From Eledone cirrhosa (taxonomy: Eukaryota): DNA of 64,000 bases. Where the stretch lies: the NCBI GenBank assembly GCA_964016885.1, contig OZ024743.1, positions 128,030,001 through 128,094,000 of the forward strand. The letters run 5' to 3'. Each line of letters opens with the position of its first letter. Position 1 is the first letter of the stretch. The notes under the pieces were generated by a model. The model ran no database searches. It saw only the letters and a list, made by a program, of their open reading frames with translations, and was not told where the DNA came from. Below, in pieces: positions 26,835-37,990 of the stretch. A program made the position numbers and the translations under genes.

Positions 26835-27275
<441 letters not shown>

Positions 27276-28380: not shown

Positions 28381-28670
28381 CCAATTCTAATTTTCAATTT
28401 CTGCTGGACCGGCGACCGCTCTGTGTAATCAGTTCCTCATTATTACTGGAATTCTATAAGAATCCAACACGCATAATTTTCAGCAAACAGGAGGAGTAGT
28501 GAGCTTGGATAAGTACCAAAAAGTACGAAACAGAGCTCTGTCAGTTTATCTCCCCTGTTTGCTGAAAATTTAAATAAGTGACATTGTCACTATTTTAAAA
28601 CAATAGCGTATGGTCTTCAAAATGCTTTTAATTAAGCATACAGTGTATTGCAAGATACACTATATATACA

Positions 28671-28672
<2 letters not shown>
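28381..28672 (+). mobile_element. Single diverged monomer of the retrozyme-like family
   Basis: Collinear blocks shared with the 311 bp repeat: TTTCTGCYGGACCGGCRACCGCTCT, CAGTTCCT, ATTCTATAAG, ATAGCG, GGTCTTCAAAATG, CATACAG. Confidence 0.8.
28500..28548 (+). ncRNA. Variant hammerhead (UGGAUAA core, U3-A8), GUC site
   Basis: tgagct TGGATAA gtac caaaaa gtac GAAA caga gc tctg TC agttta, enclosed by a 17 bp stem (28475-28570). Confidence 0.75.
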
Positions 28673-28758
<86 letters not shown>

Positions 28759-28899
28759 TAGGAATCGTAGAGTAAGATATTTTAATGGTATTTCTATGAA
28801 TATATATATATATCTTTTACTCTTTTACTCTTTTACCTGTTCCAGCCATCCGGCTGAGGCCATGCTGGGGCACCGCTCTTTTTGCTACACATTTTATCT

Positions 28900-30150
28900 C
28901 CAGCCTGTATTGGTTAGCCACTGGTGTAAGAGGGAGTTTACTGCTGCTGCCCTTAGGTTTCCCTCGTGTCTTGCTGTGGGCTCATCCGGGATCCTGGATA
29001 GCAAGGTGTCTTCTTGAAGACATCCACCTCCACGCCATGCAGATCTCTCAGATCCCTCGGCAGCTTGTTAAAGAGTTGAGGGCCATTGAATCCCATGCTA
29101 TTGCAATATCTGCTCCTTATTTTAGATGTGGAAGACCACACAGTGACGTCCTGTTCGACGGTTGGTCCAGCTCCCAATGTCAAAGTTTGATGCTAGTCCC
29201 TCCAGGATTTTCACATGTAGATCACTGCGTATCTCTCCCGTCTTCGCTCCAAGGAGTAGAGGTTCAGTTCTTTTAGCCTCTCCCAGTAGCTTATCTCCTT
29301 CATCGTGGCAATCCTCTTGGTGTAGCTTCGCTGGATTGCCTCAAGCTCCGTGGTTAGTTTGACACTATGGGGTGACCACAACTGGGAGCAATAGTCCAGG
29401 CGGCTTAGTTAAATGTCCTCCATAATGCCAACATGGTGTCTCGGTCTCTTGGCCGGAAAGTCCTCAAGATCCAGCCAGCGAGTCGTCTGCACATTGTCGC
29501 CACTTTCATGATGTGTGAGGAAAAAGATGCATCATCGCTCATGTCTATACCCAGGTCTCATTGATTGTGACACAGGGATATCGGTCCCTCCTGTTCCTGT
29601 GTAATTGTGTTGTACTGTATTTGTGTTTGCAGGTTTGTATTGTAGGGCTTGGAATTTGCCAGCATTAAACTGCATGTTGTTTTCTTCGGCCATTTGTATA
29701 TGGCATCCAGATCTTGTTGTAAAAGGGCAGCGTCAGCCGGGTTTTTGATTGATTGTGCTACCTTAGTCTCATCAGCATAGCTAGTGAGGGATGTTGTTGT
29801 ATGTACTACAGAGGGCATGTCTGAGAGAGCCACCAAGAACAGTAGTGGTCCCAGGACTGTCCCTTGAGCACCCCTCTTGTTATTGATGTTTCATTTGAGA
29901 GGGCCCCGTTTGCTGCGACTGTCTGGCTTCTGTCCTTTAAGAAGTCATGCAGCCACTCACCTACTTTTCCAGTTATGACGAGTCCGTGTAGTTTGTGACA
30001 TATCATTCCGTGGTCGACCTTGTCAAAGGCCTTCGCAAAGTCAAGATATATCACGTCCACATGTGAGCTGTCTAGCATTTGTTTCAGTACCCAGTCGTAG
30101 TGATGTAGCAGCTGTGTAAGGCAGCTTCTTCCTGGGCGGAAGACATGCTG
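28900..30150 (-). mobile_element. CR1/L2-group LINE reverse transcriptase fragment
   Basis: QHVFRPGRSCLTQLL, DVIYLDFAKAFDKVDHG, QGTVLGPLLFL, YADETK, LQQDLD, LDYCSQLWSP; frameshifted. Confidence 0.92.
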
Positions 30151-30253
30151 CGTGAAGAGATGTCAACATGAATGGACCTGTTATTTTTATCTAAAGACAT
30201 TTTTTCCAATTCCATCCTACCCGTCCCCTCAATCTATCTTATTTCTCATTCTT

Positions 30254-30289
30254 TCTTCTGATGAAGGACTAGCGTCCGAAACGTTAAGA
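30254..30289 (+). ncRNA. Minimal type I hammerhead; decayed homologue at 45285-45320 (-)
   Basis: tctt CTGATGA a ggac tagc gtcc GAAA cg TT aaga. Helix III has no loop, so it could only fold as a dimer. Confidence 0.75.
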
Positions 30290-30509
30290 CCCTCTTCCTG
30301 CTATATCAAGCGTTAACCTAATATATCCCTTCCATATACTGTACCAATTGTATTGTTATTTCTGTTTACCTTGTCAATACTTATCTTTTTCCATTTCTCT
30401 GAGGGTTCTAAACCCCACTATCAGGCTAAAATTTCTTTCGTCAAAAAATACGGTGAAAGCTTCTATTTTCTAATTTCAAACTTGCTCGCTGTTTCAAAAC
30501 ATACTTACT

Positions 30510-30583
<74 letters not shown>

Positions 30584-30780
30584 ATAATAATAAAATTGAA
30601 GACTAAATTCCAAAGAGGGCTCGATAAGGAAAATATATATCAAATATATAAGAACCTAAGAGCAAATATTTATTAAAATAACAGATTAAAGTTTAAGCAA
30701 AGAATCACTGCTTTCACCCTTAACGGGATCTTCTGAAACTAACAAAGTCAATCTGTAATATATATATATATATATATATA

Positions 30781-31488
30781 TGGCACGCCAACCAGGCCTT
30801 GCTCTTCCTCTCAACCACATCATCTTCCGTATTCCCAATCTTTGCTCCCAAATACAGGAAGTCCTCAACCAATTCTAGCGGCTTCTCGCCTACATTAGTG
30901 ATCCCCTCTGACTTCTCAACATTCTCCACCAGATATTTTGTTTTAGTCTCATTCATTCTCAGCCCCACACTCATCGACACAGTCTCAACCTCCCGCATCA
31001 AATCACCTTGAGATCGGTGTGGAAGTCGGACCTTCGTAAAGAACTGAAAATCCGCCTCTTCATTGCTGTAGTGGAGTCTGTGCTGCTGTACGGGTCTGAG
31101 ACTTGGACACTGACCAAGAAACTCACTCAGATGGTGAATGGGTTCTACACGAGAACGCTGAGGATGGCTCTGAACATTAATCAGTATACACTGGGGATGA
31201 AAAACTCAGAGCTGTATGGGAGCCTCCCAAAAGTCAGCTCAAAAGTGACACAGAGGAGACTGAGGTTAGCTGGACATGCTCACCGACATCCAGAGTTGAC
31301 ATTGCACTCAATGCTCCTGTGGGAGCCCCTATATGGACACACTGGAAGAGGAAAACCAAGGTTAACGTATGTTGATGCCCTGAGGACAGATACTGGTCTG
31401 TTGGAGACGCAGGACATGGCAGCGATAATGAAGGACAGAGACCGCTGGAGAGCACTCGTCCATGGATCTCGGGAATTTTACCCGCCCT

Positions 31489-31490
<2 letters not shown>
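30781..31490 (+). mobile_element. RTE-clade LINE 3' fragment with 5' inversion, in (TA)n
   Basis: 30781-31007 minus: VGLRMNETKTKY..VEDFLYLGA..RKSKAWLAC. 31008-31490 plus continues LRSVWKS..VESVLLYGSETWTLT..RRLRLAGH..GRGKPRLTY..DRDRWR. Confidence 0.93.
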
Positions 31491-31518
<28 letters not shown>

Positions 31519-31519
<1 letters not shown>

Positions 31520-32212
31520 ACAAAGAGCTTTATCGCTCTACATGGCTGAATACAAGAAATGTAAATCTGAGCTTTTCAAATATTAATAATAATATTCGAT
31601 TCATTTGCAATTATGCAAACAGCCTCTTTAAGCCATGTAAGTAGAATGACCCGTCATTCTTACTCTTGTGTTGGCATATAAACAGAACTGAAGACACTAA
31701 TGTTTCTGGGTGATTACCCTTCATCAGGACCGTATACTGCTTCCCTGCCAACTGTCAGAGCTAACTATTTTTTAGTTGTTTAACTATGGCAAAGCCGGCC
31801 ATTAATCGCTCGTATACATGGAACTGACTGGCCTATCTGCTGATATGCAAATCTGGCTGATCAGTGGAGCTGCTAATATGCAGATCTGACTGAACAGCCA
31901 GTCTGCTAATATGCAAATCAGGTCGATCGGTCACTGTATATTCCATAAAATATCATATATTTTCACTAACTCTGACAGTTGGCACGTAAGCAGTATACGG
32001 TACTGATGAAGGGTAATCACCCAGAAACATTAGTGTCTTCAGTTCTGTTTATATGCCAACACAAGAACAAGAATTATGAGGTCATTCTATTTACATGGCG
32101 TAAAGAGGCTGTGTGCATAATTGTAAACGAATCGAATATCATTATAATTGCTGGCCTTGTGCCAAAAGTAGAAACAATTATTAATATTCGAAAAGCTCAA
32201 ATTTACATTTCT
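31519..32212. mobile_element. Fold-back element with HHR-like cores in both arms and a triple octamer spacer
   Basis: Arms about 31540-31772 and 31966-32212 each carry CTGATGA agggtaatcaccca GAAA ca ttag tg TC (helix I poor). The spacer has three approx. 33 bp repeats with ATGCAAAT/ATGCAGAT. Confidence 0.75.
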
Positions 32213-32378
32213 TATATATATATATATATATATCAAGTAAGAATATTTTCGAAACAGCGAGCGGGTTTGAAATTATAAATGTAAGCTATCGCCGTATTTT
32301 GACTAAAGAAATTAAAGAAAATTATTTAGCCTGATAGTGGGGTTAAGAACCCTCGGAGAAATGGAAAAAGATGAGTAT

Positions 32379-32449
32379 TGACGTACATGGGAGTCGAACC
32401 CACATCTTTGGTTATCCAGACCACTGTGCTACCATTACACCAACACATC
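32379..32449 (-). tRNA. tRNA-like cloverleaf (Gln-like D arm, GGA in the anticodon position) inside a repeat element; probably not a translating tRNA
   Basis: GATGTGT TG GTGT AATGGTA GCAC A GTGGT CTGGATA ACCAA AGAT GTGGG TTCGACT CCCAT GTACGTC A. 71 nt, four stems pair, TTTTT about 10 nt downstream. Confidence 0.7.
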
Positions 32450-32650
32450 ACCTGTCTTTTTCCATTCGAATTAGAAGCTATAATCTTAGAAACTGTAAAT
32501 GTCAAGTAAGAATATTTTCCATTTCTCCGAGGGTTCTTAACCCCACTATCAGGCTAAATAATTTTCTTTAATTTCTTTAGTCAAAATACGGCGATAGCTT
32601 ACATTTATAATATATATATATATAGAGAGAGAGAGAGAAGATATTTATAT

Positions 32651-33868
32651 ATGAATATAGACATAGAATATTCGAAAATATTCTGTATGTTTATAATAAA
32701 CATTTTGAAGACCTAATCGCTATAGAATAGAATACGTCACGTATTACAATTAGATTCTCGATAAAAGCAAGGGAAGTAAATCTACGCGTTTCATTCTCGT
32801 TAGAAATCGTCAGGACTACATATCCAGTGCTTTTATCGAGAATGACACAGCTAGAGACTTATAGAATACTTAGCTGTGTACAGGAACTGGTTTGAAAGAG
32901 CGGTTGCCGGTCCGGCAGAAATTAGAAATTGGAATAAATGCTCTGAAATAGCGATATATATGTGAATATAGACATAGAATATTCGAAAATATTCTGTATG
33001 TTTATAATAAACATTTTGAAGACCTAATCGCTATAGAATAGAATACGTCACGTATTACAATTAGATTCTCGATAAAAGCAAGGGAAGTAAATCTACGCGT
33101 TTCATTCTCGTTAGAAATCGTCAGGACTACATATCCAGTGCTTTTATCGAGAATGACACAGCTAGAGACTTATAGAATACTTAGCTGTGTACAGGAACTG
33201 GTTTGAAAGAGCGGTTGCCGGTCCGGCAGAAATTAGAAATTGGAATAAATGCTCTGAAATAGCGATATATATGTGAATATAGACATAGAATATTCGAAAA
33301 TATTCTGTATGTTTATAATAAACATTTTGAAGACCTAATCGCTATAGAATAGAATACGTCACGTATTACAATTAGATTCTCGATAAAAGCAAGGGAAGTA
33401 AATCTACGCGTTTCATTCTCGTTAGAAATCGTCAGGACTACATATCCAGTGCTTTTATCGAGAATGACACAGCTAGAGACTTATAGAATACTTAGCTGTG
33501 TACAGGAACTGGTTTGAAAGAGCGGTTGCCGGTCCGGCAGAAATTAGAAATTGGAATAAATGCTCTGAAATAGCGATATATATGTGAATATAGACATAGA
33601 ATATTCGAAAATATTCTGTATGTTTATAATAAACATTTTGAAGACCTAATCGCTATAGAATAGAATACGTCACGTATTACAATTAGATTCTCGATAAAAG
33701 CAAGGGAAGTAAATCTACGCGTTTCATTCTCGTTAGAAATCGTCAGGACTACATATCCAGTGCTTTTATCGAGAATGACACAGCTAGAGACTTATAGAAT
33801 ACTTAGCTGTGTACAGGAACTGGTTTGAAAGAGCGGTTGCCGGTCCGGCAGAAATTAGAAATTGGAAT
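32651..33868 (-). repeat. Tandem array of 3.9 x 311 bp hammerhead-containing units (retrozyme-like)
   Basis: Unit starts at 32653, 32964, 33275 and 33586; copies look identical. HHR at 32776-32819, 33087-33130, 33398-33441 and 33709-33752 (gtagtc CTGACGA tttctaacgagaat GAAA cgcg TA gatttac). Confidence 0.92.
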
Positions 33869-34010
33869 ATATACATATACATATACACACATATATACAT
33901 ATGTATACATGCATACACACACATACACGTATATATATGTGTGTGTGTGTGTGTATGCATATATACTTGAGAGGGATTCTTCTCTAAAGACCTTCTGCTG
34001 TCCAGCTCGC

Positions 34011-36030
34011 CTATATATATAAAACAGAGAATCTCTGTCTGTCTGTCCGATCACTAAAACTCGAGAACCACCCAATCGATTGTTTTCAAACTTTACACAT
34101 GTAATACTTATGGTCCTGTGAGTGTTTGAGCAAAAATTTCAAATTTTCAATGCCCTACGGACCGCATTAGGCGATTTAGCGATCTCTCTCTATAACTCTT
34201 AGTCTTTCTCTTTTTAGATAGATACATAGATATAACGTTGCACCCTTAGGTGACCCCCCAAAGAGGATGTCCTCATCCTCGGGTCACCGATCCACCCGCC
34301 GGCCATCCGCTCCACCATCAGGTCCAGGCTTCAAACGCTCCAGACTCTGACGAGCCGACTGGGCTTGATTGACGGCCACCCAGCTCTCTTTCTGCTGAGG
34401 AACTGCTTCGCCATGCCGAAGCTCCACTATACACTCCGCAGCGCTCCGTGCTACACCCAGACATCTCTCCTCGCTGACCTCGATACTTGTATCCGAGCAG
34501 AAGCCAAGGGGATATGCAACGTCAAGTTTGACGAAATAGGGTGGCAACAGGCCACTTTACCTGTCAGGTATGGCGGCCTTGGCCTCCGGTCCCCGATCTC
34601 ACTACTTTGCCGGCGTATCTTTCGTCGGTAACCTCGTGCCGCGTCCTCGTTAACAGGGTTCTTCAAAACACATTGAACCCTCTGTGTTCAGAGAACGTGA
34701 GGCCGCCTGTGAGACGTGGAACCGGCTGGGACTTAGCCCAGTAGACGTCCCTCCTCCTTCTCCCCTGTTGACGTTAAGTCCCCTCAACGCACTTGGGATG
34801 CCATCCAGTGCAGCCTGCCCTCAGACAGGCTCACGCGCCAACTCGACCAGCACCGCCTTGCTTGTTTCCGTGCGGCCTCCAAATCCCACAGTGGTGACTG
34901 GCTCCATGCTCTGCCCTCCTTCTCCACTGGCACGCAGCTAGACAACCATAGCCTGCGAATCGGCGTTTCCCTGAGGCTCGGCCTCCGGATTTGCCAGCAA
35001 CACCAATGTCGCTGCGGTGCCACCGTGGACTCTTTCGGCCTCCACCCGCTTTCCTGTCGCCACAGTGCCGGCCGCATTCCACGCCATGCTGCCCTCAACG
35101 AGGTCATTAAGCATGGCTTGGACGCTGCAGGCTTCCCTACCCAGCTCGAGCCGGTGGGGCTGGATCGAGGGGACGGCAAAAGGCCAGATGGCATGACCCT
35201 CTTCCCGTTCCGCGGTGGCAAACCCCTCGTCTGGGATGCCACTTGCACCGACACTTTCTGCAGCTGCAACCTGGTGCAGTCTGCGACTGACCTAGGTTCT
35301 GCTGCGCGCCGGGCTGAGGGGGCTAAACTCCTCAAATACCGGTCGCTGTCCGACAGGTTTGCGGTCGTACCCCTGGCAGACTTCTGGTGTCCTCGGCCTC
35401 AGGGCTACTTCCTTACTCACCACCATAGGCGCTGAGCTAGCCAGCCGCAGGTGTGAGCACCGCGATTTGGAGTGGCTTTTCCAGCACATCCCCCTTGCCG
35501 TCCTCCGAGGAAACACCTTCTCCATTCTGTCCGCCGGGGCTGTGGCCCCATCGCGTACCGTTGTAGTTGTTGTATACAGATATTAACTCATCAATCCCAT
35601 TGTCCTAATCCAGAACACAATTATATATCTCCCAAATAGAGAATATTTAATTATATCTGTCTGCATTACGACATTATGACGTAGCTGTGTGTGTGTGTGT
35701 GTGTACATATGTATATATAGTGTGTGTATATATATATATAGTGTGTAACGTTTTTCGAAATATTTACTTCTGCGTTCACAGATTGATTTTCTTATTCTAA
35801 TTTCAGAAGATCCCGTTAAGGGTGAAAGCAGCGATTCTTTGCTTAAACTTTAATCTGTTATTTTTATATATATATATACAATTATATATTCATGTACAGA
35901 TATATTTGCATACACAATAACAAAATATAAATAAACGTATTTATTTCACGAGGCTCAATAAGGATAAATATATATCAAATATATAAGAACCCTAGACCAA
36001 ATCCCGAGCAACGCCGGACCATTCTGCTGG
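34011..36030 (+). mobile_element. Non-autonomous Helitron with cargo
   Basis: The 5' 235 bp match the 5' end of the 59411-60959 element; 3' hairpin CCCGAGCAACGCCGG then CTGG. Confidence 0.75.
34245..35590 (+). pseudogene. CRE-clade-like non-LTR retrotransposon 3' part (RT thumb, CCHC knuckle, restriction-like endonuclease)
   Basis: ILGSPI, LLRNCFAMPKLHYTLRS, QATLPVRYGGLGLR, SGDWLHALP, CRCGA..H..SC, RHAALN, EPVGLDRGDGKRPDG, LVWDATC. GC-rich island with frameshifts. Confidence 0.88.
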
Positions 36031-36084
36031 TATATAATAAAATAAAACAAGGACGAGTGGTTACTCCTTCATTACGTTTATTGG

Positions 36085-36175
36085 CTGGTGACGCGTGTTT
36101 CGCCACCGATCAGTTCAAGGTTCGATCTGTATCGATCTAGCCCGACTCTGTAATCCACGGCTCGTCAGACACCTT
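36085..36175 (-). ncRNA. Hammerhead-like motif with long helix II insertion
   Basis: ggtgt CTGACGA gcc..(approx. 55 nt)..ggc GAAA cacgcg TC acc; helix I imperfect. Confidence 0.5.
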
Positions 36176-36218
36176 TTAGTGATAACTCCCTCTATATATA
36201 TATATTAGTGATAACTCC

Positions 36219-36268
<50 letters not shown>

Positions 36269-36397
36269 TCCATTATGGTGTGCGACTTATAGCCCTATTA
36301 GAATTCAATGTAGAGTAGATATATGTAATTATCCTATCAAACGAAGCAAAGCGAAATTTGATTTTGTGGAAAAGTAGTATCTTATTACAGATTTTTA

Positions 36398-36795
36398 ATA
36401 AACAACCCGTATATTATTCAATATACAATACATACATATATGAGTATACCGCTATGCTGAAGCACCAATACAATTTCTTTTAAAGCCTGGCCGGCTATCG
36501 CTCCGTATGAAAATGAGTTTCATCAGCTCATGAAAATAAGTAAAAATCTATAAGATTCTAGCTTATTTTAACCTCAGTCTAAGTGGGGAGATATGTAGTC
36601 TTGATAAACGCAAAAGAGCGAGAAACAACGTATTGATTACTTCGGCATGCTTTTGGTGAGGGCTGGTGTGTGACGTTCGTTACAACCTTAAAATATTTAT
36701 AGCGAAAGGCCCTCAAATGTTTTTCATAAACAATCCGTATATTCTTCAATATACAATACGTACATATATGAGTATACCGCTACGTTGGAGCCCCA

Positions 36796-36800
<5 letters not shown>
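36398..36800 (+). mobile_element. 1.2 copies of a 328 bp diverged retrozyme-like unit
   Basis: 75 bp direct repeat at 36398 and 36726, blocks collinear with the 311 bp unit, and an HHR-like motif at 36595-36640 (gtagtc TTGATAA acgc aaaaga gcga GAAA caacg TA tt gattac). Confidence 0.75.
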
Positions 36801-36835
<35 letters not shown>

Positions 36836-36838
<3 letters not shown>

Positions 36839-37983
36839 AATATAGACATAGAATATTCGAACATATTCTGTATGTTTATAATAAACATTTTGAAGACCTA
36901 ATCGCTATAGAATAGAATACGTCACGTATTACAATTAGATTCTCGACAAAAGCAAGGGAAGTAATCTACGCGTTTCATTCTTATTAGAAATCTTCAGGAC
37001 TACATATCCAGTGCTTTTATCGAGAATGACACAGCTAGAGACTTATAGAATACTTAGCTGTGTACAGGAACTGGTTTGAAAGAGCGGTTGCCGGTCCGGC
37101 AGAAATTAGAAATTGGAATAAATGCTCTGAAATAGCGATATATATGTGAATATAGACATAGAATATTCGAACATATTCTGTATGTTTATAATAAACATTT
37201 TGAAGACCTAATCGCTATAGAATAGAATACGTCACGTATTACAATTAGATTCTCGACAAAAGCAAGCGATTAGGTCTTCAAAATGTTTATTATAAACATA
37301 CAGAATATGTTCGAATATTCTATGTCTATATTCACATATATATCGCTATTTCAGAGCATTTATTCCAATTTCTAATTTCTGCCGGACCGGCAACCGCTCT
37401 TTCAAACCAGTTCCTGTACACAGCTAAGTATTCTATAAGTCTCTAGCTGTGTCATTCTCGATAAAAGCACTGGATATGTAGTCCTGAAGATTTCTAATAA
37501 GAATGAAACGCGTAGATTACTTCCCTTGCTTTTGTCGAGAATCTAATTGTAATACGTGACGTATTCTATTCTATAGCGATTAGGTCTTCAAAATGTTTAT
37601 TATAAACATACAGAATATGTTCGAATATTCTATGTCTATATTCACATATATATCGCTATTTCAGAGCATTTATTCCAATTTCTAATTTCTGCCGGACCGG
37701 CAACCGCTCTTTCAAACCAGTTCCTGTACACAGCTAAGTATTCTATAAGTCTCTAGCTGTGTCATTCTCGATAAAAGCACTGGATATGTAGTCCTGAAGA
37801 TTTCTAATAAGAATGAAACGCGTAGATTACTTCCCTTGCTTTTGTCGAGAATCTAATTGTAATACGTGACGTATTCTATTCTATAGCGATTAGGTCTTCA
37901 AAATGTTTATTATAAACATACAGAATATGTTCGAATATTCTATGTCTATATTCACATATATATCGCTATTTCAGAGCATTTAT

Positions 37984-37990
<7 letters not shown>
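36836..37990. repeat. Second retrozyme-like array, 310 bp units, 1.4 copies inverted against 2.3 copies
   Basis: Orientation switches at about 37266. HHR at 36961-37003 (-), 37478-37520 (+) and 37788-37830 (+): gtagtc CTGAAGA tttctaataagaat GAAA cgcg TA gattac. Confidence 0.92.

Follow-up and report, generated by a model that had tools for sequence, protein, structure and literature searches.

We describe here a non-coding repeat of ~310-330 bp in the genome of Eledone cirrhosa that is very probably built like an animal non-long terminal repeat (non-LTR) retrozyme carrying a type I hammerhead ribozyme, and in which the core pair between positions 3 and 8 is U3-A8 in some subfamilies and C3-G8 in others. 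Copies lie in a stretch of 64,000 nucleotides (assembly GCA_964016885.1, contig OZ024743.1, forward-strand positions 128,030,001 to 128,094,000), referred to below as the window. On the features that its sequence allows to be tested, the element works like, and is, a non-LTR retrozyme. Both the core variant and the element class have already been published; this is a well-resolved new example and not a new kind of element. The new elements are a count over the whole genome, two very closely related sister subfamilies with different core pairs, and evidence for repeated swaps.

Three units of the window were compared, namely the monomer at 28381 (A), the 311-bp repeat (B) and the unit at 36398 (C). 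They are true subfamilies of one non-coding repeat, as the first-pass annotation of this DNA had supposed, with majority sequences 63-66% identical in pairwise comparison. The blocks CGCTC, CTATAAG, GTGAC and ATAGCG follow in the same order in all three. Two further blocks described as common to all, GGACCGGC and GGTCTTCAAAATG, are exact in A and B, but C has GGCCGGC and GGCCCTCAAATG instead. The core motifs TGGATAA (28506-28512) and TTGATAA (36601-36607) are located where that annotation placed them, the CTGACGA core of B lies at 32807-32813 on the minus strand, and the 328-bp period of the 36398 unit was upheld by 63 matches in 70. A four-seed profile recovers A, B and C as full units (E 5e-84 to 1e-69), all three being its own seeds; BLAST alone links A to B with E 1e-10.

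The claim that positions 3 and 8 change together holds at the subfamily level across the genome (3.0 Gb in 1,796 contigs searched). The pair is fixed as U3-A8 in subfamilies A1-A5, E, E3 and C, and as C3-G8 in B, D and the distant lineage F. Subfamily D, with a CTGAGGA (C3-G8) core within otherwise A-type helices, was first seen beside an A unit at locus L003, where one tandem insertion (L003:1159-1781) joins two templates, a D unit followed by an A1 unit. Among the copies with A/D context, 663 of 671 are U3-A8 or C3-G8, and the eight mismatched ones (four C3-A8, four U3-G8) are roughly as frequent as copies in which position 4 has decayed. The first 100 of these 671 Y3/R8 copies comprise 87 U-A, 12 C-G and 1 C-A, and 123 full-length copies from nine groups comprise 75 U-A, 41 C-G, 4 C-A, 2 A-A and 1 gapped. 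No amplified subfamily with a mismatched 3:8 pair was found among those sampled.

The helices around the core tell the same story of an old and diversified family, with compensatory changes between subfamilies. In 14 subfamily representatives 94.4% of the cells of hammerhead and enclosing stem are paired, as compared with 34-42% in slid controls, and 19 of 27 pairs have changed on both sides across subfamilies, a figure matched by none of 500 shuffles in a test that relatedness among the copies inflates. The 3:8 pair itself is UA in nine of these representatives, CG in four and UG in one. The nine fixed core positions are all identical in A1, B and C, versus 142 of 285 columns overall (p ~0.002); those unchanged across deep lineages are 4-6, 9, 12-14, 15.1 and 16.1. 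Around 28500, helices I, II and III and the enclosing stem do all pair, as had been proposed (z = -7.15 for the enclosing module).

Subfamily majorities have a YUGANRA/GAA core with a Watson-Crick 3:8 pair, from which the 28381 copy departs at U4G, and three helices surround the core, with helix I open and with covariation. The A15.1-U16.1 pair and an NUH cleavage site are present at the family level (GUC in the A clade, in D and in the C majority; GUA in B). Rfam model HH9 aligns to the hammerhead over its full length with 21.6 bits (gathering score 52), and, with regard to a possible tertiary contact between loops 1 and 2, loop 2 equals the HH9 consensus CAAAAA and the helix I bulge is a partial match. 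Helix III is palindromic or nearly so in every lineage; in the B array, which also has a U10.1-U11.1 mismatch, it is a 6-nt palindrome. The minimal hammerheads of Penelope pseudo-LTRs (pLTRs), which combine a long helix II with a helix III of 1-2 bp or none and flank an RT/GIY-YIG ORF, do not fit, as here helix II has 4 bp, helix III has 12 nt in A, C and D, and there is no open reading frame (ORF) to speak of: the longest spans 23-36 amino acids, and none exceeds 36. The unit falls within the 150-450 bp of retrozymes, its module has a GC content of 0.36-0.43 (below 50%), and copies with one type I hammerhead per unit are both tandem and dispersed, one array (L242) giving 16 profile matches. 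No LTR layout was seen in the loci and units viewed, with no dedicated search made for LTRs, primer binding sites or polypurine tracts.

Within this general design some subfamilies show variations of their own. Subfamily C has an A-A mismatch at 10.1-11.1, and in some copies of E and E3 (L134, L188, L195) an additional A separates helix II from G12. At L249-L268 a further young B subfamily forms two-armed arrays, with A10.1-U11.1 replacing the U-U mismatch. A separate repeat at L231, L233 and L234 (G000:C1), which the family profile does not match, has the core of B and a U-U-based helix II.

A general pattern for U3-A8 hammerheads with a 12-nt helix III returned 3,397 motifs genome-wide versus 187 for its control, and the corresponding C3-G8 pattern 609 versus 183. 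The prediction that a strict CUGANGA search would overlook the variant is therefore borne out, at ~3,200 U3-A8 motifs. By subfamily, A gave at least 70 matches from 3,160 first-look candidates (most of those listed 94-98% identical), C gave 55 from 696 (~77-86% identity), and B gave 316 near-identical matches in arrays; lineage F has 2,324 candidates, and most of the matches listed are 97-99% identical. C3-G8 dominates in the young B lineage, with 3,978 matches to one pattern that had been aimed at the C lineage and was swamped by the further B subfamily (B variant in 98 of the first 100). Neighbouring and spaced stretches amounting to 400 kb (40 loci) contained six profile matches, too few for a census. 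Rfam run over the whole window reported no hammerhead at E up to 1, canonical B copies included, and since these were missed as well, the failure is not specific to U3-A8.

D and its nearest U3-A8 relative, A5, are ~95% identical, and their majorities differ at 15 positions, including 3, 7 and 8. Once positions 3, 7 and 8 are masked, the tree groups A1 with D as its sister (support 100/99), and adding A5 places D among the A5 copies (95/83). The trees, built on 57, 38 and 43 rows sampled from ~150 distinct full-length copies, require two swaps without lineage F and three with it. A single switch is rejected with F as outgroup (approximately unbiased test, p-AU 0.003 and 0.011) and, without F, on the flanks alone (p-AU 0.029). 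A graded U3-A8 series leads towards D, from A5 to a copy at L302 with the 5-nt loop of D. D is probably a reversion to C3-G8, favoured by the best F-rooted trees and by this series.

The proposal that the double change reflects selection on self-cleavage stands in part. The 3:8 covariation holds, but selection on the genomic copies themselves is not supported, as core and non-core positions stray from their subfamily's majority with similar frequency. The proportions for core and other sites are 6/360 and 231/8,445 in A1 (p 0.32), 10/456 and 302/10,388 in D (p 0.47), and 11/184 and 351/4,335 in C (p 0.40), in sets that include a few copies fetched as mutants and others whose choice was biased by similarity or pattern. 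No purifying selection is thus seen on the inserted copies. We infer that these are neutral and that it is the source RNAs, from which new copies are made, that are under constraint.

Neutral decay of inserted copies would also explain the G4 at 28507 and the cleavage site lost at 36634. G4, which the first-pass annotation singled out as an additional unusual feature, is real in the 28381 copy but is a private, one-off mutation found in none of the other aligned A copies. Genome-wide, 671 copies with A/D context have U4 and eight, spanning at least two subfamily backgrounds, do not, five of these having G; G4 as a feature of the family is thereby ruled out. Position 28507 is T in 16,040 of 16,055 depth units of run X1, a figure that has no bearing on expression. 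In the 36398 copy a 3-nt deletion near 36634 takes out the GUC triplet, so that this copy has no NUH site, and its helix III/cleavage segment has 8 nt; of 34 C copies compared with it, three could not be parsed, and the other 31 all have 10-12 nt. Its module folds no better than shuffled sequence (z = 0.03), and its ribozyme is likely dead. Neither U3-A8 copy of the window can be taken for an intact ribozyme, one having G4 and the other lacking the cleavage triplet, and because of this the evidence must come from the subfamilies.

How such an element might propagate is suggested by published models (PMC4209133; PMC7229834; PMC8557442; bioRxiv 10.64898/2026.07.22.740005). Tandem multimeric transcripts would self-cleave to unit length through the hammerhead, best as a double hammerhead. 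For 9 of 12 representatives this double fold equals the predicted dimer minimum, and for the other three it lies within 1.4 kcal/mol of it. The unit-length RNAs would circularise and would be reverse-transcribed and inserted by a Penelope-type enzyme. Head-to-head arms occur at 19/30 A1, 21/30 D and 5/30 C loci, and a microsatellite adjoins 46/53 3' ends in A1 and 42/52 in D; both arrangements have been described for Penelope-like insertions (PMC8557442). Self-cutting of the RNA is likely, and so, by analogy, is its copying back by a Penelope-type reverse transcriptase. Only source RNAs still able to cut would propagate, hence the two to three flips of the 3:8 pair, which would probably include the return to C3-G8 in D, and copies would decay neutrally once inserted.

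With regard to transcription, ATGCAAAT is common to C (36506-36513) and F (27027-27034), and A and B lack this octamer, which we take to be the octamer motif. A TATA-like CTATAAG stands ~20 nt before the enclosing stem in A, B and C (28454, 32864 on the minus strand, and 36548). The two together are a possible promoter of the small nuclear RNA type.

Several points weigh against this account. The Rfam scores are below the gathering thresholds; self-cleavage and the RNA stages are predictions from sequence and folding; and the role of Penelope is read from insertion structure, no search for an autonomous Penelope partner having been made. The copy counts are not independent, hundreds of matched copies amounting to two or three evolutionary events, and for the D event taken alone the chance of positions 3 and 8 changing together is ~0.07, as estimated from the 13 changes among 102 module positions. 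If F is left out, the tests on the whole unit (p-AU 0.09) and on the module (0.24) do not reject a single switch, and none of them rejects a basal D, which would do away with the reversion (p-AU 0.51, 0.30 and 0.30 in the three tests of it). Finally, the differences between A5 and D cluster in the module, with 13/102 there versus 1/190 in the flanks, a pattern that a block swap fits too.

This last point bears on a different history of the same retrozyme, in which entire core blocks were exchanged between elements with hammerheads, through recombination or template switching, and did not change stepwise by compensatory mutation. As a general explanation this is possible but unlikely. Besides the clustering, the D unit in tandem with an A1 unit at L003 speaks for it, as does the close likeness of the core and helix II of B to the hammerhead at L231, L233 and L234, outside the family profile; for these three reasons block exchange may account for some of the swaps. 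However, the D module retains the helix II of the A type and a helix III that is almost unchanged, module and flank trees agree in joining A1 with D and B with C, graded U3-A8 forms lead to D, and no donor was found among the sampled copies.

A second possibility, quite doubtful and derived from folding models, gives position 3 a dual role. In the monomer or circle, the 5' strand of helix I together with positions 3-5 would base-pair with helix III's 5' arm in an off state; dimerisation through the 12-bp palindrome would turn cleavage on, and the 3:8 swap would be tied to position 15.4. For 8 of 9 A-clade representatives such a fold is predicted to be the most stable one of the monomer, lying 0.5-7.0 kcal/mol below the active fold, and the same holds for the circular A1 unit. 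An equally long helix arises from only 4-8 of 256 possible palindromes, and positions 3 and 15.4 can pair in every one of 12 rows (UA 6, UG 4, CG 2). These calculations leave out tertiary contacts, however, and in D the energy gap is negligible (0.5-0.7 kcal/mol, with 144 and 256 of 256 null palindromes giving one as large). Whichever base of a U-G wobble undergoes a transition, the result is a Watson-Crick pair, so that apparent repairs are expected by chance; covariation over the whole helix is weak, 291 of 500 shuffles scoring as high for pairs, and B has just two such pairs. The combined picture, improbable as it stands, would be that of one retrozyme family that flipped 3:8 both ways several times in module-confined bursts, flips made possible by the further pairing of position 3 with helix III in an off state that protects the monomeric circle, a U-G wobble serving as the bridge.

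That the U3-A8 lineages are weak or dead ribozymes, spread through promoter and Penelope-recognition sequences, is very improbable: U3 and A8 are indeed both ordinary transitions towards A/T in an AT-rich genome, arising in two or three events, their activity is a prediction from the sequence and inserted copies show no core constraint, but helix II of the U3-A8 clade exists in four compensated forms (GUAC/GUAC, GCAC/GUGC, GCAU/AUGC, GCUU/AAGC), several helix III palindromes occur while subfamily majorities retain the core and the GUC site, and U3-A8 is reported active in vitro (PMC3088659).

The retrozyme reading also agrees with what is known of other systems. U3-A8 is, as the first-pass annotation stated, a published natural variant: covariation of C3-G8 to U3-A8 in several natural hammerheads was reported in 2011 (Perreault et al. 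2011, PMC3088659), and its activity in vitro rests on a statement in that paper that such ribozymes had already been shown to be active. The examples there are scattered, whereas E. cirrhosa has thousands of copies and sister subfamilies in one animal genome. In schistosomes, ~1,300 Penelope-linked U3-A8 hammerheads are on record, the covariation having been missed by the descriptor used at first (Cervera and de la Pena 2014, PMC4209133). Those of the Penelope-like Cercyon of Schistosoma mansoni share the core covariation and a dimer model with palindromic helix III, but they are of the minimal kind, lie in pLTRs and have a long helix II, in contrast to retrozyme units with a 4-bp helix II, a helix III of 4-6 bp and a traceable subfamily tree. 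Closest are the non-LTR retrozymes of metazoans (Cervera and de la Pena 2020, PMC7229834; Li, Clavereau and Pollet 2026, bioRxiv 10.64898/2026.07.22.740005), likewise non-coding, of 150-450 bp, low in GC, with one type I hammerhead, present as monomers to multimers and in several families per genome; helix II of the axolotl HHR_Amex2 has a U-U mismatch at its base, a trait shared by subfamily B. The E. cirrhosa family differs from them in its large U3-A8 radiation, its 12-nt palindromic helix III and its close C3-G8 sister, and, unlike retrozymes with circular RNA expression, it is known from genomic sequence. The sections of these two papers covered, supplements lying outside, do not mention U3-A8, and our literature searches, again excluding supplements, found no paper on this repeat family of E. 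cirrhosa.

The features of the family in the window are listed in Table 1.

Table 1. Members of the repeat family in the window and parts of the 28381 ribozyme
Feature	Position	Strand	Basis
A1 monomer (U3-A8), then (TA)n	28381..28672	+	genome matches
17-bp long stem enclosing the hammerhead	28475..28570; arms 28475-28491, 28554-28570	+	z = -7.15; 8/13 counted pairs changed on both sides
Type I hammerhead of the A1 monomer	28499..28549	+	folding, pair counts, Rfam alignment
Its helix I	28499-28505 with 28543-28549	+	
Its core (U3, private G4, A8)	28506-28512	+	
Its helix II; G12-A14	28513-28526; 28527-28529	+	
Its palindromic helix III; C17	28530-28541; 28542	+	
B tandem array, 3.9 x 311 bp, C3-G8 core CTGACGA	32646..33869	-	
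Old C copy, period 328, decayed stem; U3-A8 core	36398..36800; core 36601-36607	+	
Head-to-head array of B variant (CTGAAGA, C3-G8)	36831..37989	minus arm 36831-37269, plus arm 37265-37989	
Copy of distant lineage F (C3-G8), serving as outgroup	27018..27195	+	

The fourth, distant lineage F is carried by a palindromic insertion (26935-27265) and has a GC-rich C3-G8 hammerhead at 27089-27191. Another repeat family contributes an inverted pair of C3-G8 hammerheads (31664-31757, minus strand; 31973-32066, plus strand), and a hammerhead-like motif with a canonical core (30258-30282, plus strand) adjoins a reverse transcriptase fragment. Broken non-LTR retrotransposon remnants occupy 29806-30159 (minus strand), 30912-31487 (plus strand) and 34254-35432 (plus strand), with matches to RVT_1 (E 3e-6) and DUF6451 (E 1e-4) and with further frames lacking a Pfam match, which we take to be those of a restriction-like-endonuclease element. 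A transfer RNA match of 49.7 bits, above the gathering score, lies between duplicated flanks at 32379-32449 (minus strand) and is probably the head of a short interspersed nuclear element.

In summary, sisters that are ~95% alike and differ in the 3:8 pair make a natural compensatory change in a ribozyme active site traceable, and censuses confined to CUGANGA miss thousands of animal retrozyme copies in the E. cirrhosa genome. The advance is incremental unless the off-state model holds; if the combined picture of repeated flips and an off state were true, the family would amount to an experiment of nature in the evolution of a ribozyme switch that dimerisation activates.

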